From Minisyncoccota bacterium (GTDB lineage Bacteria > Patescibacteriota > Minisyncoccia > Phycocordibacterales > Phycocordibacteraceae), in NCBI GenBank assembly GCA_035533615.1, contig DATLTM010000003.1, forward strand, positions 1 to 43,524: a stretch of DNA of 43,524 nt, given 5' to 3'. Of the stretch, positions 32,309-43,524 are shown piece after piece. The position numbers were made by a program, and so were the translations under genes. The notes beneath the pieces were generated by a model, which made no database searches, was not told the DNA's origin, and was given only the letters and a program-made list of their open reading frames with translations. Within the stretch, counting starts at the first letter, position 1; the number at the start of each line of letters is the position of its first letter.

Positions 32309-32339
32309 ACTGTCCCCGTGACTTTTTACCAAGGACAGT
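32309..32339 (-). terminator. Terminator of gene 32349..32726
   Basis: actgtcc-N17-ggacagt. The minus strand is followed by TTTGTTTTTATG. Confidence 0.55.
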
Positions 32340-32348
32340 CTTTCAGGT

Positions 32349-32726
32349 CTATGCCGCTTCGGGTGGAGTCGGACCGGTTTCAATATTGTTGAGTTTCTCT
32401 TTGAGTGCCGGATCGATCTGGACAGCATCTTCCCATACTCGCATAAGTATGCGGAGCAGGGGTTCGATGAGTTCCCGCTTGCGTTTATTACGAAACCGTT
32501 CGGATGCATCATAGGGTCTCAGCCATACTCTATGGGTATGTGTACCGTCCTGCAGCTCATCATCCTTCAAAGAAACGATGACCCATAGTGTATTGGTACG
32601 CGACTCAACCCATACCTGATTTACATCAAGAAGTGCCTTACCGCGCGGTCCCCGCCTTAAGGGCGGATGACCGATAGGGCGGTTTCGCCTGCTCTTATAC
32701 GCTAAGAGCGAAATTATCTTGGACAT
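32349..32726 (-). CDS. Hypothetical basic 125-aa protein
   Basis: Clean ORF with no family recognised. Repeat copy I and TTGACT-N17-TAGTTT lie upstream. Confidence 0.5.
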   Translation of the reverse strand: MSKIISLLAYKSRRNRPIGHPPLRRGPRGKALLDVNQVWVESRTNTLWVIVSLKDDELQDGTHTHRVWLRPYDASERFRNKRKRELIEPLLRILMRVWEDAVQIDPALKEKLNNIETGPTPPEAA

Positions 32727-32791
32727 GGTGGCCTCGCGGGTCGACGGTTTACAGAAACATCCGTGTAAAAACTATGCCTGGAGAGCACATA

Positions 32792-32835
32792 AGTCAAATT
32801 AGATTTGGCTCCGCCGGATTAGGAATCGTCGGACC
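32792..32835 (-). repeat. Island promoter-proximal repeat, copy I
   Basis: Plus strand: agtcaaattagatttggctccgccggattaggaatcgtcggacc. The left end is 66 nt from the ATG at 32726. Confidence 0.7.
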
Positions 32836-32848
32836 TGAGCGGGATAAA

Positions 32849-32885
32849 AGCAGAAGACCGCTTCGTGAGGAAGCGGTCTTCTGCT
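32849..32885. terminator. Strong bidirectional terminator
   Basis: agcagaagaccgcttc-gtgag-gaagcggtcttctgct (16-bp stem) with T-runs on both strands. Confidence 0.8.
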
Positions 32886-32894
32886 TTTCTTTTA

Positions 32895-33041
32895 TTAAGC
32901 CTTCTTTTCTAGCGCTGACCAAAACGCAAGAATTGCGACCAGGACGCCGATAATGACAAATCGTGTGGTATGGTCTCCACCCATATAGGCCAAGACGATT
33001 ACTGCAAGTCCAAGAAGAACGTTAATCCACTGTTTCCACAT
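32895..33041 (-). CDS. Small 2-TM membrane protein (48 aa), hand-called
   Basis: MWKQWINVLLGLAVIVLAYMGGDHTTRFVIIGVLVAILAFWSALEKKA. A terminator lies immediately downstream. Below the track cut-off. Confidence 0.5.
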   Translation of the reverse strand: MWKQWINVLLGLAVIVLAYMGGDHTTRFVIIGVLVAILAFWSALEKKA

Positions 33042-33093
33042 GGTGTAGGTATGTTATGTGATTTTAATTCAGGTTCCCGAAACTAGTATAGCA

Positions 33094-33123
33094 TTCTGAC
33101 CGCTGAATAGGGAGCATCAGAAC
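33094..33123 (-). repeat. Island repeat, diverged copy J
   Basis: Plus strand: ttctgaccgctgaatagggagcatcagaac, about 15 of 24 core positions by hand alignment. It has the same orientation and the same position relative to a minus-strand gene (53 nt from the ATG at 33041). Confidence 0.35.
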
Positions 33124-33177
33124 TTGCATTACAGTATAACCCCTTTGGGGCGGAAATTCTGACACAGTAACTAATGG

Positions 33178-33183
33178 TATACT
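33178..33183 (+). promoter_or_regulatory. -10 box TATACT (TGn-extended) 6 nt before the GST ATG
   Basis: atggTATACTccagcaATG with no SD. Confidence 0.5.
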
Positions 33184-33189
33184 CCAGCA

Positions 33190-33807
33190 ATGATTAAGTT
33201 ATATACGTGGCCTACACCAAATGGCTATAAGGTTTCCATTATGCTCGAAGAACTCAAACTTCCTTATGAAATAATCCCGGTTCATATTGGCAAGGGCGAG
33301 CAGAAAAAACCGAGCTTTTTGAAACTCAACCCCAATCATAAGATACCCGTGCTCGTCGATGGCAAGACAACCATCTTCGAATCTGGCGCGATACTCATCT
33401 ATCTCGCAGAGAAAAATGGTGCGCTTCTGCCGATGAAAGGGCCTAAACGTTATGAGACGCTTGAATGGCTTATGTTTCAGATGGCAAGTGTCGGACCCAT
33501 GTTCGGGCAGGCGAATCATTTCCGCAAGTATGCTCCAAAGAAAGTCCCTTACGCAATTGAACGCTACGACACAGAAGTCGTGCGTATATTCGGCGTACTC
33601 GAAAGTAAGCTCAAGAAAAGTAATTACCTCGCTGGCTCGTATTCCATCGCTGACATCGCAACCTGGCCGTGGGTGTGCATTCATAAAAATATGGGCATTG
33701 GGTTGAAAAGATACCCTGGGGTGCATCGTTGGCTTGAGCGTGTGAAGCGGCGCCCTGCAGTGCGGCATGCGCTAGCGAAGGTAAGCGATGCATGTGCCAA
33801 GTCTTAA
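33190..33807 (+). CDS. yfcG: Glutathione S-transferase, Nu-class (YfcG/YghU-like disulfide reductase type)
   Basis: Co-linear similarity to E. coli YfcG from memory: 'LYTWPTPNGYKVSIMLEE', 'LNPNHKIPVLVD', 'FESGAILIYLAEK', 'VPYAIERY', 'YSIADIATWPWV'. Confidence 0.85.
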   Translation: MIKLYTWPTPNGYKVSIMLEELKLPYEIIPVHIGKGEQKKPSFLKLNPNHKIPVLVDGKTTIFESGAILIYLAEKNGALLPMKGPKRYETLEWLMFQMASVGPMFGQANHFRKYAPKKVPYAIERYDTEVVRIFGVLESKLKKSNYLAGSYSIADIATWPWVCIHKNMGIGLKRYPGVHRWLERVKRRPAVRHALAKVSDACAKS

Positions 33808-33857
33808 AGACCGGATATAAGGAGGTTCGAATCAACGCGATATTATACGTTTGAATT

Positions 33858-34217
33858 ATGTGGCGATTTTTTGCATCTAACCTTTTGCTCCGTGTTGCCA
33901 TCGCCTTTGCATTCCTTTATGCGGCCATCGACTCATTGATAGAACCGAACTTGTGGGTTACTTTCTTTCCGCCCATCCTGCTTACGGTTATCCCAGGTAA
34001 TTCGCTGTTAGTAGTCTGGAGCGTTGTGGAGATTGTCATCGCTTTATGGATATTGTCAGGCAAGTACATTTTCATTCCTTCGCTTTTTGCAGCAGCGTCG
34101 CTTGTCGCCATCGTTTTCTTTAACATCCCGCTGATGCAGATTGTGTTTCGAGACCTTGCGCTTGCGTGCGTTGCCCTGTTCCTTGCACTTCAAAGTCTTT
34201 CCCCAGTATCTAGCTAG
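33858..34217 (+). CDS. 4-TM membrane protein (weakly DoxX-like)
   Basis: Four hydrophobic segments. The family call is weak. Confidence 0.5.
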   Translation: MWRFFASNLLLRVAIAFAFLYAAIDSLIEPNLWVTFFPPILLTVIPGNSLLVVWSVVEIVIALWILSGKYIFIPSLFAAASLVAIVFFNIPLMQIVFRDLALACVALFLALQSLSPVSS

Positions 34218-34282
34218 CTTGAGCTTGTGCCGAATGACGCATTTGCTATTCTATTTCATGTTATTCATCTCACGCAACCAAC

Positions 34283-34756
34283 ATGAACAAATCGGTAGTT
34301 ATGTGGACAGTGCTAGCGGTCATTGTTATTGCTGGCGGATGGTATTGGCTCTCGATGAGCCAGACTTCATCAGCGATAATTGCGCCAACACAAACGGTCG
34401 CTACCCAGCCCACTGCGGTCGTGTCGTCAACCACGCCAGTGCTAAATGTACATTCTGACCCAACGCTTGGTACCTACCTTGTTGCTGCTAACGGTATGAC
34501 GCTTTATGTAGATACGAAAGATACGAATGGCGTTAGCACTTGCACAGGTGTTTGTGCCGCGAATTGGCCCCCCTATATTGTAAATAACGAACCAACATTT
34601 ACTGGAGGAGTAGGTGTTTCGGGAGCGATCACTGTAATTAGCGATACCATGCAGCTTACCTATAAGGGTATGCCGCTTTATTTCTGGATCAAGGATACCA
34701 AGGTAGGTGATGCGACTGGAAATAAAATCGGCAATTTCGTCCTTGCCAAGCCGTAA
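34283..34756 (+). CDS. Secreted protein with two 'Yx(FWY)xxD'-type repeats (PF03640/COG4315-like)
   Basis: 'LGTYLVAANGMTLYVDTKDTNGVSTCTGVCAANWPPY' and 'MQLTYKGMPLYFWIKD'. N-terminal TM. Confidence 0.75.
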   Translation: MNKSVVMWTVLAVIVIAGGWYWLSMSQTSSAIIAPTQTVATQPTAVVSSTTPVLNVHSDPTLGTYLVAANGMTLYVDTKDTNGVSTCTGVCAANWPPYIVNNEPTFTGGVGVSGAITVISDTMQLTYKGMPLYFWIKDTKVGDATGNKIGNFVLAKP

Positions 34757-34790
34757 TTGAATACGGATTAAGCCCTGTCAGAGAAAACAA

Positions 34791-34815
34791 AGCCGCCTTT
34801 ATTAGGGAGGCGGCT
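34791..34815. terminator. Hairpin between convergent genes
   Basis: agccgcct-ttattaggg-aggcggct (8-bp stem). Confidence 0.5.
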
Positions 34816-34841
34816 GGGGCACTCTAGTAAGATTCCCCCTG

Positions 34842-35183
34842 TCAATTCATTCCTCGAGACATACCACGTTTGAGCGTCGCATGAAGTGATTTCTTTTGCA
34901 CAGACCGCTTCCAGAGATCGTAGCGCGTGATTATGTCGTTGGATTTCTCCTTGAAGACCTCGATTTTGAGGTTGAATTGTGGGATGGCGGCGATGGCTCG
35001 ACGCACATCTGCATAGCCGCGCGGACACTCCCAGAGGTCGCGTCTCTTTTTGTCAATGCACAGTTTCTCCCGATGTTCACACTCCTGATTTTGCTCACCG
35101 ATAATCTTGGCGAGGTATTCATTCGTGGCTGGATCATTATTGATCGCATACAGATACCACCTGACTACTTGTTTTATGCACAT
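34842..35183 (-). CDS. Hypothetical 113-aa protein
   Basis: A GAGGTGA SD lies 5 nt upstream of the ATG. No family recognised. Confidence 0.5.
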   Translation of the reverse strand: MCIKQVVRWYLYAINNDPATNEYLAKIIGEQNQECEHREKLCIDKKRRDLWECPRGYADVRRAIAAIPQFNLKIEVFKEKSNDIITRYDLWKRSVQKKSLHATLKRGMSRGMN

Positions 35184-35445
35184 AGTTCACCTCGCTTTTC
35201 ATATAAAGTTCATCTGTGACCGAGTTTACGCTCTTCTGCGACGTTGGGGAAGGCGTAAGTATTTTGGTTCCAGGTCATATCGTCAATATACAGAGCCTAT
35301 GCAATACGGACTTTTTATTTTCTAAAAAACAGCGATTAGATTTGAACGCATTTTGTGCTGAATCTTAAGCAACAGGAATGCGCAAAAATACGCTATCAGA
35401 AACGGCAATAAGAAAAGCAGTGGCAGTTAAGAATCTGGCAAAATG

Positions 35446-35471
35446 AAAAGACGCCGCGGGGGCGTCTTTTT
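35446..35471 (-). terminator. Terminator of the RlpA-like gene
   Basis: aaaagacgcc-gcggg-ggcgtctttt. Confidence 0.7.
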
Positions 35472-35472
35472 G

Positions 35473-35835
35473 TTACTTGCGAATTATGCTAACGGCGAGT
35501 TGCGTCACACCTTTCTCAGCGTAACCGAGTATCTTTGCCGCAGCATACGAAAGATCTAAATCCCGGCCCGTTACATAAGGACCGCGATCTTGAACAACAA
35601 CAATCAAACTCCGGCCATTCATCGGATTTTCTACAAGCAATGTAGTGCCGAGCGGAAGCGTCCGATTCGCCGCAATCGTCGGGTCGTTACTATTGAATGG
35701 TAGCCGGTTTGCCATGGGCTTGCCTTCAAGGCCAGGTCCATACCAGCTCGCAATGACTATCCTAGTGTCTGCTCTTACCGGAGTGCATAGAAAGAACAAA
35801 AGCAAAACAAATACTACTGAAATACCCTTCATCAA
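35473..35835 (-). CDS. RlpA-like double-psi beta-barrel (septal-ring lytic transglycosylase family) secreted protein
   Basis: 'IASWYGPGLEGKPMANRLPFNSNDPTIAANRTLPLGTTLLVENPMNGRSLIVVVQDRGPYVTGRDLDLSYAAA'. Confidence 0.8.
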   Translation of the reverse strand: MMKGISVVFVLLLFFLCTPVRADTRIVIASWYGPGLEGKPMANRLPFNSNDPTIAANRTLPLGTTLLVENPMNGRSLIVVVQDRGPYVTGRDLDLSYAAAKILGYAEKGVTQLAVSIIRK

Positions 35836-35961
35836 TTACTCCTAAATGGTTCCAGTAAGAGTTACTACACCTCAATAGGGGAATTTGTTACAAGATATAA
35901 AATTTGATTGGCAGGGAAGGAGAGGGCAGTGATGTAGATTGTCTTGGAGCAGATACAAAAA

Positions 35962-35985
35962 GAAACCTCGTCGGAACGAGGTTTC
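35962..35985 (-). terminator. Terminator of gene 36013..36423
   Basis: gaaacctcgt-cgga-acgaggtttc (10-bp stem). The minus strand is followed by TTTTTGTATC. Confidence 0.75.
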
Positions 35986-36012
35986 GAATTTAGCCGAGAC
36001 CGTAGTAGTGGG

Positions 36013-36423
36013 TTACTTCGCGACGAGTGTCGCGCCATCCAGCGTTTTGAGCTTCAGCAGCTGACTGGCACAGTTGTCGGCAATTGCATCCTTGATATAC
36101 GAATCCAGTTTCTGACCCGGTTCAGTGACCCACTTACCTTTTTCGATGTAAGTTGAGTCTTGCCAGGACGAATCCTGGTCTTGCTTGTAGAGTGCCTTCC
36201 ATGCGGCGACCGAGTTTGGTTGTTGCTCGAATCGTGCCATACAGACGGGCGTAGCGTAGGCTACGACTGCCGTCTGTGCCTGCTGCGCGGCTATCTGTTT
36301 TGCAGCCCCTGCACTCATCCAGCCGAAACCTGACGAGAGGACCATCCACCAGACCATGGCTCCCACCACTCCGCCCCAGAAACCGTGCTTTACCAAGGCG
36401 GGTATCTCAAAGGACTTTTTCAT
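36013..36423 (-). CDS. Membrane-anchored protein, unknown
   Basis: Track ORF 36013..36546 trimmed to 'MKKSFEIPALVKHGFWGGVVGAMVWWMVL' (GAGGAG SD upstream). The long form would read through repeat copy A. Confidence 0.55.
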   Translation of the reverse strand: MKKSFEIPALVKHGFWGGVVGAMVWWMVLSSGFGWMSAGAAKQIAAQQAQTAVVAYATPVCMARFEQQPNSVAAWKALYKQDQDSSWQDSTYIEKGKWVTEPGQKLDSYIKDAIADNCASQLLKLKTLDGATLVAK

Positions 36424-36494
36424 GCACATCTCCTCGGTTCCTAGAGGAAAGGAATTTCCTCCTAGTTTTGCTATAATACTGAGAATCACATACT

Positions 36495-36534
36495 TGTCAA
36501 TTTTTTGGTTCGCTAGATAGAAGATATTCGGATC
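36495..36534 (-). repeat. Island repeat, copy A (with abutting minus-strand TTGACA-N16-TATTAT)
   Basis: Plus strand: tgtcaattttttggttcgctagatagaagatattcggatc. Confidence 0.7.
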
Positions 36535-36582
36535 TGCTTTGCTCAAAGTGCTATACTGAACAGATGACTACAATCTATTAGG

Positions 36583-36588
36583 TATACT
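36583..36588 (+). promoter_or_regulatory. -10 box TATACT 6 nt before ATG 36595
   Basis: aggTATACTttatctATG with no SD. Confidence 0.5.
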
Positions 36589-36594
36589 TTATCT

Positions 36595-37002
36595 ATGGAA
36601 ACTCATCCCCTTACCGCTTCAGTGCTTCAAGACGACATAGTGCTCATAATTATTCAAGGAAATGTTACCGAAGATAGACTCCCGTTACTCAGAGAGGATA
36701 TAGAAAAAGGAACTGCCCTCCTCCAGGAGGAGTCACAGCGGGTTCTGCACCCGCTTCGTGTGCTTGTTGATTTGAGCAATCTCAACGATACCTATTCGCC
36801 AGAGGCTCTGTTATTGCTTGCCGACTTTGAGAAGAAGAACCGATCATATGTAGAAAGAACCATATGTTTCGGGGCAGATATAAAAATCAGATTCGCCGGT
36901 GAGATAATTTCAGCACTTTCAAACCGCGAGAACATTTCTTTTTTTGATACCAAAGAAGAGGCTTTAGCATCACTTAAAAGTGATGCTTCTCAGAGCAGAT
37001 AG
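36595..37002 (+). CDS. STAS / SpoIIAA-like fold protein
   Basis: The pattern 'DDIVLIIIQGNVTEDRL...LRVLVDLSNLNDTYSPEALLLL...ERTICFGAD...ISFFDTKEEALASL' matches the STAS/SpoIIAA-like layout. Assigned by eye only. Confidence 0.5.
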   Translation: METHPLTASVLQDDIVLIIIQGNVTEDRLPLLREDIEKGTALLQEESQRVLHPLRVLVDLSNLNDTYSPEALLLLADFEKKNRSYVERTICFGADIKIRFAGEIISALSNRENISFFDTKEEALASLKSDASQSR

Positions 37003-37080
37003 CCCTATCCCATAAAGACAAAGTATCTTCGAACGTATCCAAGAGGGAAGCGATTGGGAATCAACAACAATTCTTTCTTC

Positions 37081-37332
37081 TTACCTAGGAACTCGAGCTG
37101 TTCTGCGAGAATTCAGAATCAACATAGATCGAAAGACTCTCTTTGAAGAAGTAATGAATCGGAAAAAATTCCTAGAAAATTGAATCTGCATTTCTCTAAC
37201 GAAATATTTTGCTGGCTGGAAAATGTATTTATGCTCAAGCTCCAAAAGGAAAATAGTCGAGACTATACCAGTTGCAACACCAACGATCCAGAAAAGCACA
37301 ACCACCTCCGCCATCAGTACATACATAAGCAT
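37081..37332 (-). CDS. Small membrane protein with basic tail (83 aa)
   Basis: TM 'VVVLFWIVGVATGIVSTIFLL'. Repeat copy B lies 59 nt upstream. Confidence 0.5.
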   Translation of the reverse strand: MLMYVLMAEVVVLFWIVGVATGIVSTIFLLELEHKYIFQPAKYFVREMQIQFSRNFFRFITSSKRVFRSMLILNSRRTARVPR

Positions 37333-37390
37333 GATGACGAGTGATGAATTAGTTCTATTACAATATAAATCATGAAGGATCGTTTTTAAT

Positions 37391-37423
37391 GATTTGATCC
37401 GCTGGATAGAGGATGTTCGAACG
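37391..37423 (-). repeat. Island repeat, copy B
   Basis: Plus strand: gatttgatccgctggatagaggatgttcgaacg. Confidence 0.85.
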
Positions 37424-37464
37424 TATTTTGTCTAAACTATTTTATTCAAAACCTGTTTGAGGTA

Positions 37465-37599
37465 AAGAAAACCCCAGGCGCTGTAGCGACCTGGGGGAGC
37501 TTTTTAAAAGATCGCCTTCTTGCGCCCTGACTTGCTCAAGGGCAGTCACGCACGAAGTGGGGAGCTGTCTCAGCCGAGCCGTCCCGTCGCTTTATCGGC
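37465..37599 (-). ncRNA. Candidate ~135-nt small RNA (or 21-28-aa peptide mRNA) driven by the repeat-C promoter
   Basis: Minus-strand TTGACA (37629-37634) -N17- TAACTT (37606-37611), then a locally GC-rich segment with the stem GCCCT-N10-AGGGC. It ends at the terminator ccccaggcgc-tgta-gcgacctgggg (37472-37496) followed by TTTTCTTT. No ORF of 60 aa or more on either strand. Confidence 0.35.
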
Positions 37600-37627
37600 A
37601 TAGAAAAGTTAGCATGCTTCATATACT

Positions 37628-37664
37628 TTGTCAAGCGCTCCGCTGGATAGAGGATATTCGAACC
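37628..37664 (-). repeat. Island repeat, copy C
   Basis: Plus strand: ttgtcaagcgctccgctggatagaggatattcgaacc. Confidence 0.85.
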
Positions 37665-37674
37665 TGTTGTGGGG

Positions 37675-37680
37675 TATACT
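37675..37680 (+). promoter_or_regulatory. -10 box TATACT 6 nt before ATG 37687
   Basis: tggggTATACTctctcaATG with no SD. Confidence 0.5.
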
Positions 37681-37686
37681 CTCTCA

Positions 37687-37920
37687 ATGGAACGTCTTAA
37701 TTTCCCCTCTCATGAGCAAGGAGATGGCTATCTCGTACTTGTTGGGAACCTCATGCAGCAGCAGCTCGCGGAGCGTCATGGCGAGACTATCGAGACCTTT
37801 ATAGAGAGGCACGCAGCGCAATTTCGCGATGTACTGAATAAACATCCTGAATACATCGCAAAATTTGACGATAACGCTGAAGAGACGCTACAACACATTG
37901 AAACAATTCTCTACCATTAG
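37687..37920 (+). CDS. Small helical protein (77 aa), unknown
   Basis: The track GTG start at 37669 lies inside the -10 box. I prefer ATG 37687, 'MERLNFPSHEQGDGY...'. Confidence 0.5.
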   Translation: MERLNFPSHEQGDGYLVLVGNLMQQQLAERHGETIETFIERHAAQFRDVLNKHPEYIAKFDDNAEETLQHIETILYH

Positions 37921-38075
37921 GATCTGTGACCGCCAGTTGGATGAGTTCAGAACTCTAGATTGGAGGAGTATTGAGAAGGAATTGGGGGAGTTGAGTTGAA
38001 TAGAGGCTGTTAGGACCTGTTTGGTATAAAAAATCCGTCCAGGCCGCATTGGCGAGGACGGAAATTGCTGTCGGC

Positions 38076-38993
38076 TCACTGGTTCTTGTAGAGCTTAAGA
38101 AGTGCCGGGAAGTTCTTCGACGATGGTGCATATGTTGCTCCTCCACCGGTTGAAGTAACGATTCCAATGACTTCGCCCCACTCGTTATAGAGCGGACTAC
38201 CCGAGAAACCAGCTTCGGTTTCGCCCGCGATACGGATCAGCTGATACTGCGTTGGAATGACTTCATAAAATGGTTCGCGTTCTCCCATACCGGAAAGATT
38301 CTGCGAGATACCAGCATTACCTTTCGCGGCAACGGTGCCGAAAAAGGAAACTGGTCCAATCATCGAGATAGTATTCGGTGCGGTCTTGGTTTGAGCAGTA
38401 TCGACTATCACGTTCTCTTGTATTGACCTTCCATATACTGCTTCGCCAACGACTGCTTCTTTGAAGGGAAGCCCGCGCATGCCATTCGGCACCTTCTCGA
38501 CTTGAAGCAGTGCCAGATCCGCTTCTGAGATACTGCCAATATAACGAGCAGGAACACCACGGAAGGTTATTCCTTTGCCGTTTAACTGCTCGATGTAAGG
38601 CGGTAAGCAATGGTGCGCAGTGATGACCAGTCGTTTTTCCATGCTGGCTAGGAAACCGCCACACCGGAGTGTTTCTGTGACTCGCGCCGTCGTTTTTATT
38701 TTAATTTCGATGAGGCCGTATCCCTCCCTGTAGGCTTTTTCGACAGCAATCGGCAACAGAGCCGACTGATAAGCAATTGCAGTCTCGTACGGTACTTCGA
38801 TGCACTGCTTACCGAAGCACAACTTGCGAATATCGCCGCGCCCACGCGCTTCCACGCGCTTTGAGACAGATGTCTCTTCCTTGATAGGAATGGTTGTGCT
38901 CGAAGCGTTTGCTGGCGACGGTACCTGTGCTATTGCCGTCGTTACTGCTCCGATCAGCAGACGTGCCACAAGAATCCCAACTAATTTTTTCAT
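38076..38993 (-). CDS. Secreted trypsin-like (S1/chymotrypsin-fold) serine protease
   Basis: Signal peptide 'MKKLVGILVARLLIGAVTTAIAQ'. Triad candidates His 'VITAHHCL', Asp 'EADLALLQV' and Ser 'GFSGSPLY'. A GAGGTGG SD lies upstream. Confidence 0.8.
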   Translation of the reverse strand: MKKLVGILVARLLIGAVTTAIAQVPSPANASSTTIPIKEETSVSKRVEARGRGDIRKLCFGKQCIEVPYETAIAYQSALLPIAVEKAYREGYGLIEIKIKTTARVTETLRCGGFLASMEKRLVITAHHCLPPYIEQLNGKGITFRGVPARYIGSISEADLALLQVEKVPNGMRGLPFKEAVVGEAVYGRSIQENVIVDTAQTKTAPNTISMIGPVSFFGTVAAKGNAGISQNLSGMGEREPFYEVIPTQYQLIRIAGETEAGFSGSPLYNEWGEVIGIVTSTGGGATYAPSSKNFPALLKLYKNQ

Positions 38994-39080
38994 TTTTCCA
39001 CCTCATGTTTGTCAGTGAACTATTACCCCAATTGGGGATCTGAGAACCTGAAGTCTATAATATCACAATATATAGAAAAA

Positions 39081-39116
39081 GCAAATTTGCTCCGCTGGAT
39101 AGAGGATGTTCGGACC
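39081..39116 (-). repeat. Island repeat, copy D
   Basis: Plus strand: gcaaatttgctccgctggatagaggatgttcggacc, 88 nt from the ATG at 38993. Confidence 0.85.
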
Positions 39117-39138
39117 TAGGTGGTATAGAAACAATAAG

Positions 39139-39166
39139 CCCGTCACAGGCCTATTGCTGTAACGGG
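39139..39166 (-). terminator. Terminator of the DUF4406-like gene
   Basis: cccgtcacag-gcctattg-ctgtaacggg (one mismatch). The minus strand is followed by CTTATTGTTTC. Confidence 0.6.
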
Positions 39167-39179
39167 TCTTTGAACAACG

Positions 39180-39707
39180 TCATTCGGGAATGAGAGCTAA
39201 GACTTTCTCCGCGTACTCCAATGGGTGCTCTTCTTTCATGAATCGTCCAATTTCTTCGCGGGTAAGATCAGAGATACCAAGCTTAAACCTCACGAGCTTT
39301 TCGCGTTCAAAATATGCCCCAAGTGACGAATGCCATCCTGGAATAAACCATCCTTTGGTAATGAGTCCACTCTCGACAAGTCGCGTGTAGAAAACCGTCA
39401 GGATGGGCATGCAATAGCCTGAATTACCTTTTGCCTCCCATGCATACGCGAGGCGACGCAATCCAAACTCATATGGGACTTGGCTGAAGATATTCTCGCC
39501 CGCCCGCTGGAGTCCGCGAATCGCAGCGTTGAACACCTCGAAATTGTGTATCTGGTTGTTCGTACCTCCCGTAGATATCGGCCCGCAAACGACACCGCTT
39601 GGACCTTGTTCACGGAGGTTCTTTACTGCTATTTCCGCTAGCGCTTCAAACGACGCGGCTTCGATACCGTGTGTCTGGAGCTCTCTGGGTCCTGCTGCAT
39701 ATACCAT
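39180..39707 (-). CDS. DUF4406-like (nucleoside 2-deoxyribosyltransferase-like superfamily) protein
   Basis: 'VVCGPISTGG' (compare the 'ISGPMTG' of the family) and 'FIPGWHSSLGAYFEREKLVRFKLGI' (compare 'LPGWE.S.GA..E...A'). Assigned from memory of the family. A GGAGG SD lies upstream. Confidence 0.5.
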   Translation of the reverse strand: MVYAAGPRELQTHGIEAASFEALAEIAVKNLREQGPSGVVCGPISTGGTNNQIHNFEVFNAAIRGLQRAGENIFSQVPYEFGLRRLAYAWEAKGNSGYCMPILTVFYTRLVESGLITKGWFIPGWHSSLGAYFEREKLVRFKLGISDLTREEIGRFMKEEHPLEYAEKVLALIPE

Positions 39708-39758
39708 GACTGCCTCCGTAGAAAATAACTATGTCAGACTGTAAATTAGCATATTAGA

Positions 39759-39782
39759 ATCGGAACCGCTATCGGTTCCGAT
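39759..39782. promoter_or_regulatory. Perfect 10+10 palindrome in the divergent promoter region
   Basis: atcggaaccg-ctat-cggttccgat, 25 nt upstream of the TAGAAT box of the zeta-kinase gene and 52 nt upstream of the DUF4406-like ATG. Confidence 0.55.
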
Positions 39783-39807
39783 GTCGGAAGTACCCTTTGA
39801 ATCATAG

Positions 39808-39813
39808 TAGAAT
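39808..39813 (+). promoter_or_regulatory. -10 box TAGAAT 6 nt before ATG 39820
   Basis: catagTAGAATgtaaagATG with no SD. Confidence 0.5.
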
Positions 39814-39819
39814 GTAAAG

Positions 39820-40536
39820 ATGTCTCCAGATGAAATAAGAGCGCAGGCGATAGATTTTGCTAAAAAGCATAAAGGTGAGATCGCCGACGAATTAACTGAT
39901 ACCTCTCGTATTCTCTCGGACGAGCACCCAATCTCAGTGTTTATGGCAGGGTCGCCGGGAGCAGGTAAAACCGAATTTTCGAAAGAGCTAATCGGCATCT
40001 TAGAAAAGGACGGCCAACGTAAGGTCCTACGTATCGATGGAGATGATTTGCGCCAGCGTATGCCGGAGTACGTCGGCAACAATTCAGACCTCTTTCAGGG
40101 CGCGATTTCCATAGTTGTAGATAAAATTCACGACTCCATATTAGAAAAGAGACAGTCTTTTATCCTGGATGGGACATTCGCGAAGTACGAAAAAGCTTCT
40201 CATAACATTCGGCGTTCGCTCAATAAGCACCGTAGCATCTTTATCTTTTACGTATATCAAACGCCTAGCACTGCGTGGCGATTTACCCAGGCACGGGAGC
40301 AACTCGAAGGCAGGAATATTCCAAAGTCGGCTTTCATCGAACAATTCTGTGGGGCCAAGGAGACGGTCGAGAAACTACATCGTGAATTTACAGACAAAAT
40401 AGTGATATTTCTCGTGAAGAAAGATTTCAACTCAAGCGCAACTAAGGAGATGGTAAAAATAGTTGACCCCAACACCTCGATTGACGCATACGTCGGCGAG
40501 CATTACACTAAAGAAGAACTCGAAAAATCACTATGA
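39820..40536 (+). CDS. Zeta-toxin-family P-loop kinase (PF06414-like)
   Basis: Walker A 'VFMAGSPGAGKTEFSKE', 'LRIDGDDLRQ', 'FILDGTFA'. The length and layout are typical of zeta-toxin-domain proteins. Confidence 0.75.
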   Translation: MSPDEIRAQAIDFAKKHKGEIADELTDTSRILSDEHPISVFMAGSPGAGKTEFSKELIGILEKDGQRKVLRIDGDDLRQRMPEYVGNNSDLFQGAISIVVDKIHDSILEKRQSFILDGTFAKYEKASHNIRRSLNKHRSIFIFYVYQTPSTAWRFTQAREQLEGRNIPKSAFIEQFCGAKETVEKLHREFTDKIVIFLVKKDFNSSATKEMVKIVDPNTSIDAYVGEHYTKEELEKSL

Positions 40537-40733
40537 AATGGCTCAAAAACCTATTTGAAAGCAATGAATCCGCAGTAAAGACTCCTTATGTAAATGAATA
40601 TAAGGGTTTTTCTGATTTCCTCCGCAACGCGCCTAACAGGGAGAAAATAGCAGTTTTTACTGAAGCCGCACGACGCGCAAACGAGGATCAGAGGAATACT
40701 CTTGAGAAGGCACGCGTATTAGTAGCAGATTAA
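40533..40733 (+). CDS. Small 66-aa protein translationally coupled (ATGA overlap) to the zeta-family kinase
   Basis: The ATG at 40533 overlaps the TGA at 40534-40536. Helical and charged. No family recognised. Confidence 0.5.
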   Translation: MKWLKNLFESNESAVKTPYVNEYKGFSDFLRNAPNREKIAVFTEAARRANEDQRNTLEKARVLVAD

Positions 40734-40751
40734 GTTCTAAAGAAGATTCTA

Positions 40752-40785
40752 GACAAAGGCCCCACTCGCACTCGGGGTCTTTGTC
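40752..40785 (+). terminator. Terminator of the zeta-kinase operon
   Basis: gacaaaggcccc-N10-ggggtctttgtc (12-bp stem with one G-U), followed by TTGTCTT. Confidence 0.7.
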
Positions 40786-40800
40786 TTGTCTTAAAAGAAC

Positions 40801-40826
40801 TCGCCCGAGGATTTCTCCTCGGGCGA
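40801..40826 (-). terminator. Terminator of the lipoprotein operon
   Basis: tcgcccgagga-tttc-tcctcgggcga (11-bp stem). The minus strand is followed by GTTCTTTT. Confidence 0.7.
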
Positions 40827-40840
40827 TGTTTTGTGGACGG

Positions 40841-41122
40841 TCAACTATCGAACGTACACTGGTCGTCTGGTCCTCTCTTCATACGGACTGGATTGTAAAT
40901 GCTCCAGCCGATGAAGTACACGGGGAAGACAATCGTCTCGATTAGTATGATGCTCCAGACGACATTCCCAGCGGAGATTTCGTAGCAGACATTCTTGCTC
41001 TTGTCCGAATTCTCGTTGAATAGACCGTAGGTTGGATAAGTCATTCTCTCGGTATTAAGAGGATGGCCGCAGCCACTAAGCAGGATGCTCAAGGCAACCA
41101 CAACTGCAATAAATCTCTTCAT
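40841..41122 (-). CDS. Small lipoprotein with C-terminal TM
   Basis: Lipobox 'LSILLSGC'. 'VVWSIILIETIVFPVYFIGWSIY'. It lies 27 nt downstream of the preceding gene with a GGGAGAAG SD, so it is probably the second gene of an operon. Confidence 0.6.
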   Translation of the reverse strand: MKRFIAVVVALSILLSGCGHPLNTERMTYPTYGLFNENSDKSKNVCYEISAGNVVWSIILIETIVFPVYFIGWSIYNPVRMKRGPDDQCTFDS

Positions 41123-41149
41123 CTGCTTCTCCCGTAAAGTTACCTGCGC

Positions 41150-41488
41150 CTACATGAAGAGGTGAACAACCCAACCGAACAGCAGGGCTATCCTCGGTTT
41201 GAGGATAGACATCACAGTCGCACGGGATATTACTTCTCCGAACGATCGTTTGTCATCTCTCGAGTCGTGCGTTTCCTGCTTCGTCAGGTATCCGATGACG
41301 AGAGCGATGCCGATAGCCGTGGGGATTGAAAGTTGCGGCAGGTGGAAAACAGGCACCAGGAACCATCCCCACAGGACGCTCAGGGCGTATCCGTTACAAA
41401 TGCTGCTGATGACGATGAGTGCGACAACGAAAACGAAACCTCTGAGTACAGCCGTATAGACCTCCCTATCGAGATTGATGACAAACAT
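41150..41488 (-). CDS. 3-TM membrane protein, unknown
   Basis: Three hydrophobic segments. Repeat copy H lies 42 nt upstream. Confidence 0.55.
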   Translation of the reverse strand: MFVINLDREVYTAVLRGFVFVVALIVISSICNGYALSVLWGWFLVPVFHLPQLSIPTAIGIALVIGYLTKQETHDSRDDKRSFGEVISRATVMSILKPRIALLFGWVVHLFM

Positions 41489-41529
41489 CAGTTAACAACT
41501 GTTGATGTGTTAGCACAGTTGAATTGTGC

Positions 41530-41567
41530 TGTCAAATTTGCCCCGTACGTTGGTCGATGTTAGAACC
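41530..41567 (-). repeat. Island repeat, copy H (G/H subfamily)
   Basis: Plus strand: tgtcaaatttgccccgtacgttggtcgatgttagaacc. The minus strand has TTGACA-N17-TAACAC abutting. Confidence 0.7.
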
Positions 41568-41600
41568 TTGATTTGAGCCTGGAGGTGGTAAGACCACTCC

Positions 41601-41915
41601 TTACTTTGTATTTTGTTCTAGGTATCTTGCCATTGCCTGGCGTGCCCACCATCCAAAATATGGAGAAAAATTCATGTCCTCCTCTACGATCTGCATACTC
41701 TTAAGATATACGTTGAAAGCCGTATCAAATGTCGACATTCCTGCGTCAACCAATTTAGTCTCCAGAGTCGCACTCAGCTGCCGCACTTTTATGATTTGCC
41801 GAGCTTGATATAAAGCTGTAGTACGAACAGCCTGCCGTAGTTCTTCTCGGGCATTCAAATCAGTCACAGCTTTCTTTTCGAGATCTTTATCGTTGAGCGG
41901 GTCTTCTTCCTCCAC
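41601..41915 (-). CDS. 104-aa protein whose C-terminus resembles sigma-70 region 2.2-2.3 and then stops
   Basis: 'NFSPYFGWWARQAMARYLEQN' compared with the canonical '[21 protein letters not shown]'. GTG start with a TGaTATTGT-N6-GTG (leaderless-type) context. Confidence 0.4.
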   Translation of the reverse strand: MEEEDPLNDKDLEKKAVTDLNAREELRQAVRTTALYQARQIIKVRQLSATLETKLVDAGMSTFDTAFNVYLKSMQIVEEDMNFSPYFGWWARQAMARYLEQNTK

Positions 41916-41974
41916 GAGGGTACAATATCAGGAAATACCTATCCTAAACAGGAATGGATCGTTTGCACAAAAAC

Positions 41975-42008
41975 AGTCAAGCTCGGGTGGATAGAGGATG
42001 TTCGGACC
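41975..42008 (-). repeat. Island repeat, copy E
   Basis: Plus strand: agtcaagctcgggtggatagaggatgttcggacc. Confidence 0.85.
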
Positions 42009-42018
42009 TGTTTCCTGT

Positions 42019-42399
42019 TTAGACAATATTCTTAACCAATAAAATCAATTCTTCGAGCCTCTCGTCCATTCCTTCATTGACTTGGAGATGTCTTGGGAAA
42101 AGATTATCGTCTATAACATTGTTGCTTTGTGCTGGCACAATAAAGACATTACCGCTCGCAGGATATTTTCCTAAAACTACTCTCATTCCTTCATTTTTAA
42201 ATCTCTCTATCAGCTCATCTATCAGAGTTACATAACCCGGGTCTTCTTCCTCACTAGCTTTTATTGTTGCGTATGCTTCTCGATCAATGCCCGGGAAAGG
42301 AAAGACTTCTTTACTTTCGCTGAGTTCTACTGCCAGCGCAATAATTTTTTCCTTTTTCAGCCTTAAGATTTCGGACTGGTTTGGAGGTCCTTCTGTCAT
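42019..42399 (-). CDS. Hypothetical acidic 126-aa protein
   Basis: Track ORF 42019..42516 trimmed to 'MTEGPPNQSEILRL...', because the long form reads through repeat copy F and a hairpin. Confidence 0.5.
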   Translation of the reverse strand: MTEGPPNQSEILRLKKEKIIALAVELSESKEVFPFPGIDREAYATIKASEEEDPGYVTLIDELIERFKNEGMRVVLGKYPASGNVFIVPAQSNNVIDDNLFPRHLQVNEGMDERLEELILLVKNIV

Positions 42400-42423
42400 T
42401 AGAAGAGTGTACAATATATTGCA

Positions 42424-42457
42424 GAAATTTGCTCCGCTGGGTAGAGGATATTCGAAC
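42424..42457 (-). repeat. Island repeat, copy F
   Basis: Plus strand: gaaatttgctccgctgggtagaggatattcgaac, 25 nt from the ATG at 42399. Confidence 0.85.
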
Positions 42458-42519
42458 GTTTTTGATATAGAAACGAAAAGCCCACGATCGCGTGAGCTAA
42501 TCGTGAGCACATCCATGGC

Positions 42520-42921
42520 CTACCTTTGCAAGATCCGAAACACCCCGTTGTAGCGAAGATAGATCCTTTTTTGCCCGAGTTTGGTAGAGAGAAGTTCAGC
42601 CAACTCCTGGAGAGTTGATATCACTTCCTCATCAGTAAGCTGGGCATTATATTCTGGACTTACCTCACCATCGTAGAACACGACGGGTTCAACGATGAGT
42701 GAACCAGACGTACGCCCGTAGTAGTACATCTTGCTTTTCGTGATGCTTCCCGGCAGGTATATTCTTCCGCATTTCCTTTGTTCCAGAAGCCAACGGGCAA
42801 CAATCTCGCCGACCTCTTCTGGTTTATGAAGTGTTCTGCCTTCTTCGTATCCTTCAATCAGACCTATGCCCAATCGGAACGAGCGAGCAATTTGGTTTTC
42901 TTTGTTAAGAACAGTGAGCAT
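42520..42921 (-). CDS. Hypothetical 133-aa protein
   Basis: Clean ORF with no family recognised. Repeat copy G lies 91 nt upstream. Confidence 0.5.
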   Translation of the reverse strand: MLTVLNKENQIARSFRLGIGLIEGYEEGRTLHKPEEVGEIVARWLLEQRKCGRIYLPGSITKSKMYYYGRTSGSLIVEPVVFYDGEVSPEYNAQLTDEEVISTLQELAELLSTKLGQKRIYLRYNGVFRILQR

Positions 42922-43011
42922 TTGGGCACCCTCATTAAGTTAAACTCAGTCATACACAACGAGCGCACGCAGCTCGTACCTGTTTTGTCATTTAACATAT
43001 CGAATCCTATC

Positions 43012-43049
43012 TGTCAAATTTGCTCCGCGGACTAGACGACGTTAGAACC
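43012..43049 (-). repeat. Island repeat, copy G (G/H subfamily)
   Basis: Plus strand: tgtcaaatttgctccgcggactagacgacgttagaacc. The minus strand has TTGACA-N17-TAAATG abutting. Confidence 0.7.
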
Positions 43050-43143
43050 TCCATTCGCAGCACATACGAGCACCATTTTGCTGTAGTACGCGAGTGGGGC
43101 GACCTCGTTGAGACATGCTAGCGTGGCGGGCTTTGCACGAATA

Positions 43144-43524
43144 ATGCCTCTCGAGGCTGATATGCTAAAGTTCAATCCGATGAAGAGATTCTGCTTCACT
43201 GACTCGAGCGGCATTCTTAAAAGAGATCGGTTATTCGGTACGGGTCTGCTGGTCGTGAAGAACGTCGGCGATCTTGGAGACAAGCTCAATAAAAATAGTC
43301 AGCCGGTGAAAGCTCTGGTGAAAGCGGCAAAGAATCAGAGGATAGATACGCTTTTGAGCGCAGATAACGGAGAGGAAGTTATAAGGATTCTGCGTGCAAA
43401 CGGGCGCTTTGAGATGAAGTTCGATCACATCGGAAGTGGGCCCACGCTACCGTACTACGGACGCATGGTTGATATATTCTTGGCCGATTCCGATAATCGG
43501 TTTTCCGTCATGGTTGTAGACAAG
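43144..43524 (+). CDS. DUF3800-like protein, 3-prime partial (runs off the window); not in the ORF track
   Basis: Hand translation: MPLEADMLKFNPMKRFCFTDSSGILKRDRLFGTGLLVV...RFEMKFDHIGSGPTLPYYGRMVDIFLADSDNRFSVMVVDK. 'FTDSSG' and 'EMKF...Y..MVD.F...RFSVMVVDK' match the DUF3800 pattern. The start could be ATG 43162 or GTG 43123. Confidence 0.55.
   Translation, partial: MPLEADMLKFNPMKRFCFTDSSGILKRDRLFGTGLLVVKNVGDLGDKLNKNSQPVKALVKAAKNQRIDTLLSADNGEEVIRILRANGRFEMKFDHIGSGPTLPYYGRMVDIFLADSDNRFSVMVVDK

Follow-up and report, generated by a model that had tools for sequence, protein, structure and literature searches.

The window analysed here, a 43,524-nt stretch of a Minisyncoccota genome, carries an island in which a 29-nt element very probably marks the boundaries of gene cassettes, that is, recombination junctions. 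We put at roughly two in three the probability that the element is the recombination site of a cassette platform resembling integrons or tycheposons. Most likely, the island represents an undescribed integron-like gene-collecting locus that is common to very distant ultra-small (CPR) bacteria.

A repeated element confined to one island

In the orientation of the genes (minus strand), the element reads AGGTTCGAACATCCTCYAYCCAGCGGAGC, with the junction immediately after its last base. The 27-nt core consensus put forward in the initial annotation is real (five matches at ≤2 mismatches, compared with none in 100 shuffles). Scored without gaps against the 29-nt consensus, ten co-oriented copies (A–I and K, without J) reach 20–28 of 29 positions, whereas the best score among 61,942 non-island positions on both strands is 18. 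Nine of the ten copies listed initially (A–I) therefore stand; the tenth, J (33094–33123, minus strand), scores 17/29, which lies inside the null range, has no profile match and lacks support as a family member. One decayed copy, K, had been missed.

All copies lie on the minus strand. Nearest the end of the window is copy G (43022–43050; AGGTTCTAACGTCGTCTAGTCCGCGGAGC; 23/29; 11.1 bits, E = 0.008), with its junction between 43022 and 43021. It is followed by copy F (42431–42459; ACGTTCGAATATCCTCTACCCAGCGGAGC; 26/29; 41.9 bits), with a terminator at 42479–42498 just upstream on the minus strand, and by copy E (41981–42009; AGGTCCGAACATCCTCTATCCACCCGAGC, then TTGACT; 26/29; 27.7 bits). Copy H (41540–41568; AGGTTCTAACATCGACCAACGTACGGGGC, then AAATTTGACAG) has a slightly decayed 3′ end and scores 20/29 against the null maximum of 18; together with G it forms one subfamily, members of which are also present in other contigs. 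Copy D (39089–39117; AGGTCCGAACATCCTCTATCCAGCGGAGC; 28/29; 41.7 bits) again has a terminator just upstream on the minus strand (39139–39166). Copy K (37990–38018; 21/29), detected by a repeat finder, keeps TATACCAAACAGGTCCTAAC, has lost the CCAGCGGAGC end and sits between convergent genes rather than ahead of a minus-strand gene. Copies C (37637–37665; AGGTTCGAATATCCTCTATCCAGCGGAGC, then GCTTGACA; 28/29) and B (37396–37424; ACGTTCGAACATCCTCTATCCAGCGGATC; 27/29) both reach 37.4 bits. The diverged copy A (36507–36535; AGATCCGAATATCTTCTATCTAGCGAACC; 22/29) precedes a strong TTGACA-16-TATTAT (promoter match 11/12 at 36500–36473), and the most distal copy, I (32808–32836; AGGTCCGACGATTCCTAATCCGGCGGAGC; 21/29), also diverged, has a perfect 19-bp hairpin at 32846–32888 just upstream on the minus strand. 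A profile derived from other genomes gives 28–42 bits for B, C, D, E and F and 11 bits for G; on that test alone, copies I, A, H and K would be marginal.

The geometry described initially also holds: copies are co-oriented, intergenic and restricted to the island, frequently in the order terminator, element, −35 box, and there are no copies in the first 32 kb of the window. The element is neither a palindrome nor stably folded, and it has no match in Rfam.

Conservation across CPR bacteria

A search beyond the window recovered the core in 9 CPR metagenome-assembled genomes among 185,579 species genomes and in 56 metagenome stretches; it was absent from 2.9 million viral contigs. In total, 144 copies fall in 66 loci, none of mixed orientation; these counts cover the retrieved loci, and further copies may lie away from tRNA-Asn. 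Co-oriented arrays of the same element occur in CPR genomes of two phyla, and copies from different phyla are almost as similar as copies of one array (3.26 mismatches on average between phyla compared with 2.77 within an array). Conservation is one-sided, starting about 29 nt before the junction and stopping at it; one subfamily has, in addition, a fixed second box at +47 to +64. Elements are spaced at a median of 799 bp (interquartile range, 640–1,158). A literature search found no paper containing the motif, in agreement with the earlier statement that no such element had been described.

As a short intergenic repeat with tRNA-like sequence, the element could be a selfish repeat of the REP or MITE kind, or an RNA-level tRNA-like signal (a processing site or insulator) between genes, and RAYT-type Y1 transposase genes do occur in two arrays. 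Each of these genes, however, is flanked by its own unrelated REPs. Clustering at one locus in a single orientation (66 of 66 loci), the absence of copies from the other 32 kb of the window and the lack of a palindrome, stable fold or Rfam match further argue against this reading. The element also follows gene terminators and precedes the next promoter, and thus lies mostly outside transcripts. We consider such an origin extremely unlikely.

Anchoring at tRNA-Asn

The element resembles the 3′ end of tRNA-Asn, from the T-loop onwards: aligned with the last 25 nt of the tRNA, it shows 24/24 identities with three small gaps and five inserted bases, a score reached by none of 2,000 shuffles and far above those for other tRNAs. 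In 21 loci a tRNA-Asn(GTT) gene stands at the head of the array, which begins at its 3′ end. Among the 15 tRNAs first detected in element loci, 12 are tRNA-Asn(GTT), and in 12 of 12 cases the elements lie 3′ of the tRNA and share its orientation, as do 77% of the genes. Contig L067, which is related to the window, contributes one more such tRNA, and eight additional tRNA-Asn genes are masked by group I introns. The 5′ side of tRNA-Asn is occupied by housekeeping genes.

Exchange exactly at the edge of the element

In nine pairs of contigs, the upstream cassette and its element are identical and the DNA right after GGAGC is unrelated. Six pairs show the converse: their downstream DNA is shared, and what precedes it is a different element or, in two of the pairs, tRNA-Asn. 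The breakpoints fall exactly after GGAGC. Close relatives of copy H that end in the canonical GCGGAGC are found in L025 and L037, where the upstream DNA is the same and the downstream DNA differs.

The window's own lineage is polymorphic in this way. The cassette between copies G and F (42460–43021, minus strand) comprises its own TTGACA promoter region, a 133-amino-acid gene (42520–42921) and a terminator, and has three different left partners: AAATTTGACAG directly follows a genuine tRNA-Asn 3′ end in L067, copy G in the window and in L069, and another element in L068. The flanks of the three arrangements are 99.7–99.9% identical; in L067 and in L068 the cassette itself is 99.9% identical to that of the window, with the same promoter region, and the sequence downstream of copy G, AAATTTGACAGATAGG, recurs behind both the tRNA of L067 and the element of L068. 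Alignment with L067 ends at window position 43030, within the shared CGGAGC. Window positions 43051–43524 thus belong to one or more additional tRNA-proximal cassettes missing from L067; a plus-strand ORF without a Pfam match starts at 43144 and runs off the window. The tRNA-Asn gene itself is expected outside the window, past this edge and on the minus strand.

Distal cassettes are invariant in all contigs related to the window. The remaining stacked units (32837–42430, minus strand), bounded by F, E, H, D, K, C, B, A and I, are collinear in L070–L079. According to the ORF map and Pfam, they include single-gene units (42010–42430, 41569–41980, 38019–39088 and 37666–37989), one unit without an ORF (37425–37636) and multi-gene units at 39118–41539 (with a zeta toxin among its genes), 36536–37395 and 32837–36506 (DPBB, GST and others).

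Because the element stays with the upstream cassette and the DNA after GGAGC is exchanged, these sequence comparisons indicate that each element closes the cassette before it, at the 3′ end, and that the promoter opens the following cassette at its 5′ end. The initial annotation had instead favoured an operator or activator site of an island regulon; on this view, or on that of a promoter-upstream module, a regulator or sigma factor occupying the element (at roughly −38 to −68) would control the island's minus-strand genes. Two of the observations made there are confirmed: copies A, C, E, G, H and I do have TTGACA or TTGACT within the next 0–10 nt, and the terminator hairpins ahead of D, F and I are present. 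Copy A also has an 11/12 sigma-70 match, and the strong constraint on the sequence would fit protein binding. Yet the element segregates with the upstream cassette and not with the gene ahead, and gene 42520–42921 keeps its promoter behind tRNA-Asn or a different element. Across genomes, TTGACA occurs within 16 nt after the element at only 9 of 74 unique junctions, and a terminator hairpin occurs there instead at 24. Within the window, the −10-like ATATTGT box lies anywhere between 13 and 52 nt from the core, the region shows no excess of promoter-like matches (13 found, 14.9 expected), and copy K precedes no minus-strand gene. Conservation that ends exactly at the junction also counts against regulation, which would leave the anchoring at tRNA-Asn and the likeness to its end unexplained. 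A regulatory role is therefore very unlikely. The other suggestion made initially, a module duplicated ahead of one acquired gene after another, comes closer to the truth but reverses the linkage, as the TTGACA promoters belong to the next cassette.

A model of cassette accretion

In the model we propose, each element is a DNA recombination site that bounds a small mobile gene cassette on its 3′ side, and cassettes join in succession directly 3′ of the tRNA-Asn(GTT) gene. Exchange would take place within or right after GGAGC, the pentanucleotide common to the tRNA end and the element; given this shared exchange point, the tRNA end may act as an integron attI does, and the element as attC. A newcomer would arrive beside the tRNA and push older cassettes outward, which would yield a co-oriented array. 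Each unit would consist, in order, of the junction, its own promoter or terminator, one or more genes, a terminator and the element, and the −35 boxes that follow elements in the window would be the 5′ ends of the next cassettes. The polymorphisms probably arose by insertion rather than deletion, although some tRNA–cassette junctions could come from microhomology deletion, as the tRNA and element share only 5–7 nt of identity at the crossover. In L047 a near-empty cassette is found, in which the tRNA is followed by 26 nt and then an element. Cassettes presumably pass through a free form, probably circular. A 120-nt terminal overlap of L037, the join of which is spanned by the independent contig L019, suggests either a circular cassette of 5 kb or an array in permuted order; as L037 also fits a tandem or permuted arrangement, the circle is a candidate form.

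No integrase linked to the arrays was found. Pfam and PHROGs searches of 150 ORFs of ≥190 amino acids from element loci revealed no recurrent integrase, and about 450 kb contained no integrase remnants. Probes for lambda Int, Cre, XerD and resolvase yielded a single hit, a weak resolvase-like ORF that lies 5 kb from an element. We slightly favour a dedicated recombinase acting in trans, which would be encoded elsewhere and be site-specific, over recombination without a dedicated enzyme. The one-sided conservation of the junction is unusual for the core site of a classical tyrosine or serine recombinase, and because the element does not fold, a single-strand hairpin mechanism of the integron type is not evident.

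Recombination without such an enzyme could proceed if tRNA-Asn and the elements served as short anchors of portable homology, with cassettes swapped, inserted or deleted after DNA uptake in a RecA-dependent or microhomology-mediated manner. Patescibacteria are reported to be naturally transformable, the searches gave no recombinase, and swaps that leave the element whole would be just as expected if crossing-over took place within a 29-nt identical block. Junctions between tRNA and element, however, share only GGAGC or CGGAGC and are nevertheless precise in three independent cases, and no junction makes use of the longer shared block AGGTTCGAA, although selection for an intact tRNA could explain this avoidance. 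Homology alone also accounts neither for an element at the 3′ end of every gene unit, nor for strictly one-sided conservation, nor for the fixed second box of one subfamily. We regard this route as unlikely, while giving it some weight.

Somewhat less probable still is that the elements are passive scars, fossil attR sites left as ordinary integrase-bearing islands or prophages repeatedly integrated at tRNA-Asn and decayed, with cassettes that are leftovers and not individually mobile. Integration at tRNA genes is classical, and tRNA-seeded islands such as tycheposons do accumulate partial copies of tRNAs (bioRxiv 10.1101/2020.12.28.424599). The likeness to the tRNA-Asn 3′ end and the decayed copies (K, A, I and H) fit such an origin. 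The repeats are, however, not copies of the resident tRNA end: with their five inserted bases they form a distinct 29-nt sequence, nearly identical across two phyla. The absence of integrase remnants from about 450 kb, the small (only ~0.8 kb) and regularly built units, the empty cassette and the recombination of the same cassettes with different partners exactly after GGAGC also count against passive scars.

Comparison with known systems

Integrons are attI/attC cassette arrays run by the tyrosine recombinase IntI. The arrays described here share with them small, co-oriented, mostly single-gene cassettes (median, 0.8 kb) that each have a terminal recombination site and mostly lack cargo of known function, stacking at one fixed chromosomal entry site, exchange at the very edge of the conserved site and the highest variability at the entry end. 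They differ in that the entry site is a tRNA gene 3′ end, with no intI beside it or anywhere in the ~450 kb, and in that cassettes have their own promoters and terminators. Whereas attC is a structure-conserved hairpin of 57–141 nt with R″ and R′ boxes, the element is a sequence-conserved, non-folding 29-nt mimic of a tRNA end.

CIMEs are integrase-less elements flanked by att sites that accrete in tandem (ICESt1/St3-type). Here too, non-autonomous segments with att-type boundaries pile up at a fixed site and would depend on a recombinase supplied in trans; CIMEs, however, are few, large and derived from recognizable ICEs or IMEs with a known integrase, in contrast to these long arrays of tiny units without a known helper. 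IS200/IS605-type (HUH Y1) elements insert 3′ of a specific tetra- or pentanucleotide, and the cassettes likewise join precisely behind GGAGC, a short fixed word, while only one side of the joint is conserved in sequence. Unlike those elements, the cassettes lack conserved subterminal hairpins and a linked TnpA; the two RAYT genes are associated with REPs of their own.

Tycheposons and other tRNA-targeting integrative elements build tRNA-seeded genomic islands (bioRxiv 10.1101/2020.12.28.424599; Williams 2002, cited there). Such elements carry their own tyrosine or serine recombinase and span several kilobases, unlike the ~0.8-kb units without integrase found here, and they leave genuine partial copies of the tRNA, some 40 nt long, as repeats rather than a diverged mimic that is conserved across phyla and has only GGAGC in common with the tRNA at the crossover. 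In both kinds of island, growth starts on the 3′ flank of one particular tRNA gene, successive insertions are separated by direct repeats that are related to the 3′ end of the tRNA, newcomers sit beside the tRNA, where heterogeneity is greatest, and the hosts have streamlined genomes without classical mobile elements.

Copies of the element in the window and beyond

The initial annotation had described ten copies of a conserved element in the island of the window. Its 27-nt core gave five matches at up to two mismatches and none in 100 shuffles, and a repeat finder recovered nine copies, including an unlisted one at 37990-38021. We compared every window position with a 29-nt consensus in minus-strand orientation, AGGTTCGAACATCCTCTATCCAGCGGAGC, for which the maximum over 61,942 non-island positions on both strands was 18/29. 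On the minus strand of the island, the copies score 28 (D and C), 27 (B), 26 (F and E), 23 (G), 22 (A), 21 (I and K) and 20 (H) of 29. The repeat is thus real, minus one false copy and plus one missed copy: nine of the ten listed copies exceed the null maximum, J is left out of the count because it reaches 17/29 and has no profile match, and K (37990-38018, minus strand) had been overlooked. K sits between the convergent genes 37669-37920 (plus) and 38076-38993 (minus), and keeps its 5' half but has lost the ...CCAGCGGAGC end. The weak copy H is authenticated by further junction polymorphism of its variant in two other contigs (L025 and L037). All ten real copies lie on one strand, between genes and within 32.8-43.05 kb. 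Neither ARAGORN nor Rfam found a tRNA or known RNA within the window, and the element itself has no Rfam match.

The element also occurs outside this island. Searched against 185,579 species genomes, an exact 20-mer of the core matched nine metagenome-assembled CPR genomes, with hosts named as Paceibacterota, Nomurabacteria, Parcubacteria and Saccharibacteria, which belong to two NCBI phyla, Minisyncoccota and Ca. Saccharimonadota. A tenth match, in Sporocytophaga, was taken as chance because no full-length core copy is present there at up to 8 mismatches. With a broader pattern, 56 metagenome stretches were recovered, and a profile search found 144 copies over 66 loci, none of which (0/66) has copies in mixed orientation; the largest arrays hold 9-14 copies (for example, L009 and L049). 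Three pattern scans of IMG/VR gave zero matches, and a phage-borne attP was rejected. In the literature searched on CPR, tRNA-Asn, integrons and tycheposons we found no description of the locus or the element, motif included. One Nomurabacteria contig (L002) has an Rfam LOOT RNA (RF03000, 73.6 bits) at 2978-3094, about 2.5 kb from its single element.

The element mimics the end of tRNA-Asn

Read in tRNA orientation, conservation starts about 29 nt before the junction that follows GGAGC and stops abruptly after ...CCAGCGGAGC. Aligned to the final 25 nt of a CPR tRNA-Asn gene, the consensus shows 24/24 identities, with three insertions (2, 2 and 1 nt). None of 2,000 shuffles reached the tRNA-Asn alignment score of the element, and the Gln, Arg and Phe tRNAs score far lower. 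These identities and controls show that the element is a diverged mimic of the tRNA-Asn end, which, as aligned, spans the T-loop to the discriminator plus C. A plus-strand resemblance to a D-arm and T-loop was resolved as this same similarity on the minus strand. Relative to the resident tRNA 3' end the element has five inserted bases, and the stretch common to both at the crossover is only (C)GGAGC. As DNA, it has no stable fold (-2.6 to -4.6 kcal/mol; z -0.4 to -2.1). A by-eye comparison with dif consensus sequences spoke against a Xer/dif-like site, as the element is without a core of the ATAA-N6-TTAT type.

Arrays are anchored at tRNA-Asn genes

Loci selected solely for the presence of the element were searched for tRNAs with ARAGORN, and 12 of the 15 tRNAs found are tRNA-Asn(GTT). 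All 12 have the elements 3' of them, and each is co-oriented with the reverse complement of the initially described core. Beside eight more arrays, Rfam identified group I introns that each interrupt a tRNA-Asn gene (L001 6967-7192, L047 1918-2157, L005 5594-5916, L006 591-881, L008 928-1251, L014 877-1084, L020 3927-4269 and L057 4983-5256). These eight tRNAs were missed by ARAGORN because the introns split the anticodon loop of tRNA-Asn(GTT); the 3' exon, ...AGGTTCGAnnCCTnnnnnCGGAGC, follows the intron at 23-24 nt. Group I introns in CPR tRNAs have already been mentioned in passing (PMC8172020). In total, 21 loci are anchored at tRNA-Asn(GTT), in one relative orientation throughout. In the single apparent exception, L014, an HNH gene is followed, immediately past its stop codon, by a degenerate 3' fragment of tRNA-Asn from which a second array starts. 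On the 5' side, tRNA-Asn is flanked by housekeeping genes (PBP, glutaredoxin, fmt, def and EPSP synthase).

An HNH-like family of about 105-120 amino acids adjoins tRNA-Asn, mostly divergently, in seven loci (L004 5998-6345, L047 1468-1779, L057 5452-5763, L008 1141-1458, L014 1192-1554, L001 6502-6807 and L042 2-289). Its members share an invariant CxxC...HH...N...CxxCH motif and have only sub-threshold Pfam and PDB matches. The family tracks the group I intron (five of the eight intron loci versus one of about nine others) and is absent from the lineage of the window; we therefore rejected it as the cassette enzyme. It is probably a free-standing homing endonuclease of the intron.

Cassettes are joined at a precise nucleotide

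We compared the junctions of all loci pairwise and set breakpoints by nucleotide alignment. Nine junction pairs are identical upstream, including the element, and unrelated downstream; six are unrelated upstream and the same downstream, and in two of these six the upstream partner is a tRNA-Asn gene. All breakpoints fall exactly after GGAGC, and where a tRNA partner meets an element partner their identity is GGAGC or CGGAGC only. A crossover at the palindromic GTTCGAAC of the T-loop class was rejected, as tRNAs beside shared flanks keep their own 3' ends. The simplest reading is a site-specific exchange at GGAGC, in which the tRNA-Asn end would recombine with the element that an incoming cassette carries. 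Recombination through short homology, without a dedicated enzyme, is a live rival.

The window's own lineage provides an example. The gene at 42520-42921, with its upstream region AAATTTGACAGATAGG..., lies in the cassette between copies G and F (42460-43021) and differs among contigs in what lies to its left: in the window and L069 it is copy G, in L067 an intact tRNA-Asn, and in L068 another cassette, which ends in a canonical element. Downstream of its tRNA-Asn joint, L067 is 99.9% identical to the window. From these three partners it follows that the window has at least one extra tRNA-proximal cassette (43051-43524), and its tRNA-Asn should lie on the minus strand past the right edge. Distal cassettes are collinear in all related contigs, so variation is concentrated next to the tRNA, and under site-specific exchange the newest cassettes would be those next to it. 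At 1-195 (minus strand), the alternative cassette of L068 encodes what, judged by eye, may be a LexA-like N-terminal DNA-binding domain.

Three other loci support the mobility of whole units. In L047 (2204-2255), the GGAGC junction of tRNA-Asn is followed by 26 nt and then by a complete element with its own GGAGC junction, a nearly empty cassette. In L010, the sequence at 5516-5700 recurs at 7815-8000 (99%), so that the same flank follows both tRNA-Asn and a second element. L037, a complete contig of 5124 nt, has a 120-nt terminal direct repeat (1-120 and 5005-5124) that starts inside an H-type element, and its end-to-start join is spanned by L019, a diverged contig (82-94% identity) from a sibling sample. 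These two contigs point to five cassettes that either form a circle of 5.0 kb or stand in permuted or tandem order; L037 encodes an EEP-family protein, and no replication (rep) or recombination (rec) gene was found in it. The cassette between the two L010 flanks carries an atypical tRNA-like gene at 6698-6771, which has an unusual anticodon loop, matches the Rfam tRNA model at 47.9 bits and was passed over by ARAGORN.

Cassette anatomy and promoters

Elements are spaced at a median of 799 bp (interquartile range, 640-1158), and 86 of 111 array ORFs are co-oriented with the tRNA. Directly after the junction comes an A-rich stretch, followed in 24 of 74 unique junctions by a terminator hairpin; TTGACA lies within 16 nt after the junction in 9 of the 74. 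Terminator-type and TTGACA-type sequences of the same kinds also follow genuine tRNA-Asn genes. On the other side, a gene terminator precedes the element in 29 of 70 cases by a strict heuristic, clearly so at window copies D, F and I.

The initial annotation had read the element as an operator or activator site, or as part of a promoter cassette, in a layout of gene, terminator, element, -35/-10 and next gene. The order is right, but the promoter is not part of the element's unit: a cassette ends with its terminator and element, and the promoter is where the following cassette starts. Nor is the promoter at a fixed position, as its distance from the element varies among window promoters, and promoter-like matches are not enriched in the region. 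An operator or UP-type element would differ from what we observe in having fixed -35/-10 spacing and linkage to the downstream gene; here the element is linked to the upstream cassette, and TTGACA follows nearby in only 9 of 74 junctions. A probable cassette-boundary recombination site replaces the regulatory interpretation.

One subfamily of junctions (13 of 75 unique junctions; absent from the window) has a second box, GATACC-N9-11-GTTCGAAC-C, a repetition of the element's 5' half. Its position is constant, +47 to +64 from the junction and shortly beyond the terminator. It occurs in L049 (1069, 1661, 2153, 3031, 4677, 5071, 5644 and 8686) and in L041, L047, L054, L057, L011, L024 and L028, and by analogy may be an accessory or arm-type site.

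Many cassettes open with a terminator and then an inverted element-like sequence in which a hairpin of 20-25 nt occupies the place of the element's variable triplet, GCTCCGNCGGAG-AAAG-hairpin-CTTTCGTCAGGATTCGAA (L058 4834-4999 and 5950-6290; also just after junction terminators in L048, L040, L034, L008, L001 and L033). The inverted sequence and the preceding element or tRNA end together form an imperfect palindrome that is long and straddles the junction. L058 also contains ORF-less mini-cassettes that end in other variants of the tRNA-Asn end.

Search for an enzyme and comparison with known systems

No recombinase was found in the window, and Pfam and PHROGs revealed no recurrent recombinase among 150 larger ORFs of the other loci. 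Pfam and PHROG summaries and phmmer or jackhmmer probes likewise found no tyrosine recombinase in the loci; local probes of lambda Int, Cre, XerD and gamma-delta resolvase returned only one weak resolvase-like ORF, 5 kb from an element. All-against-all clustering of 630 ORFs identified no recurrent cassette-encoded enzyme, only housekeeping flanks, fasciclin and HNH. RAYT/IS200-like Y1 HUH transposase genes with 44% mutual identity occur inside or at the end of two arrays (L046 3839-4510, which equals L044 16-687, and L058 5199-5861). We rejected these as the enzyme: each is bracketed by its own REP-like repeats, of GGGTCAGGACCC type and GGGACAGGGACA type, which bear no relation to the element, and a def gene precedes one of the two.

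Because the loci yielded no recombinase and IMG/VR lacks the element, a dedicated enzyme would act in trans. We propose, with a probability of roughly 40%, that CPR bacteria of at least two phyla share a dedicated integron-like capture platform with entry at the 3' end of tRNA-Asn, a 29-nt non-folding mimic as cassette site and an enzyme encoded off the array. As such an enzyme would need sequence on one side of the joint only, it may be a new recombination or nicking enzyme rather than a classical integrase. Such an enzyme could make the system categorically new.

The closest functional parallels are the integron and the tycheposon-type tRNA-seeded island, and the array lacks defining features of both. 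Like integrons, it consists of small co-oriented cassettes that each end in a recombination site, with exchange at the edge of the site. Unlike integrons, it has no intI beside the entry site, and whereas attC is an imperfect inverted repeat of 57-141 nt that folds as single-stranded DNA, the site here is about 29 nt and non-folding. It also lacks the paired R''(RYYYAAC)/R'(GTTRRRY) boxes of attC, and the hairpins nearby are variable gene terminators. Like tycheposon-type islands, the arrays target a specific tRNA gene and grow from its 3' side, but their repeats are not exact partial tRNA copies, and an element-encoded integrase is absent from the window and essentially absent from the other loci. 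REP/REPIN-RAYT or MITE repeats differ from the element in its single orientation, its clustering at one locus (in the loci scanned) and its lack of a palindrome or fold, and the RAYT genes of L046 and L058 are flanked by different repeats. For IS200/IS605 (HUH Y1), insertion 3' of GGAGC fits, but the arrays have neither conserved hairpins nor a linked TnpA; a HUH enzyme may act in trans.

The genomes of CPR bacteria are tiny and contain few recognizable mobile elements, which raises the question of how strain-specific genes are acquired. The locus offers a testable, sequence-defined answer, a tRNA-Asn hotspot that stacks promoter-bearing mini-cassettes exchanged at a precise nucleotide. Among the cargo are toxins, proteases, and proteins of the membrane or secreted ones, alongside many unknowns. 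As a ready probe for metagenomes, the 29-mer could serve to catalogue the flexible genes of CPR lineages, and would allow strain-level turnover to be tracked and the enzyme to be hunted by phyletic profiling. If new, the enzyme would represent a further recombination system, one whose target is short and defined. For annotation, such repeats should not be taken for regulatory motifs.

Composition and gene content of the window

The G+C content falls from about 55% to about 46% where the element copies begin, at the array's distal end (31000-35000). The cumulative GC skew has its maximum near 34-35 kb, consistent with a replication-related strand switch or with foreign composition alone. The flanking 32 kb encode ordinary chromosomal functions, and the repeat-rich part encodes small, mostly uncharacterized proteins, along with a zeta toxin, a GST, a trypsin-like protease and a DPBB protein.

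Copies C and B are separated by an ORF-less unit of 212 nt (37425-37636), previously suggested as a small RNA candidate. With TTGACA-17-TAACTT immediately behind its junction and, at about 37470-37510, a strong terminator hairpin on the minus strand, the unit has the build of a complete cassette that lacks only a protein gene.

Facing away from copies A and C are two plus-strand genes with TATACT, 6 nt and ATG in succession (36585-36597 and 37675-37690), a sequence layout that suggests leaderless mRNAs. Inside the multi-gene unit between copies H and D, at 39820-40733, a zeta-toxin gene (PF06414) overlaps a 66-amino-acid ORF by 4 nt. Both are on the strand opposite to the array direction and may be a toxin–antitoxin pair that stabilizes the array.
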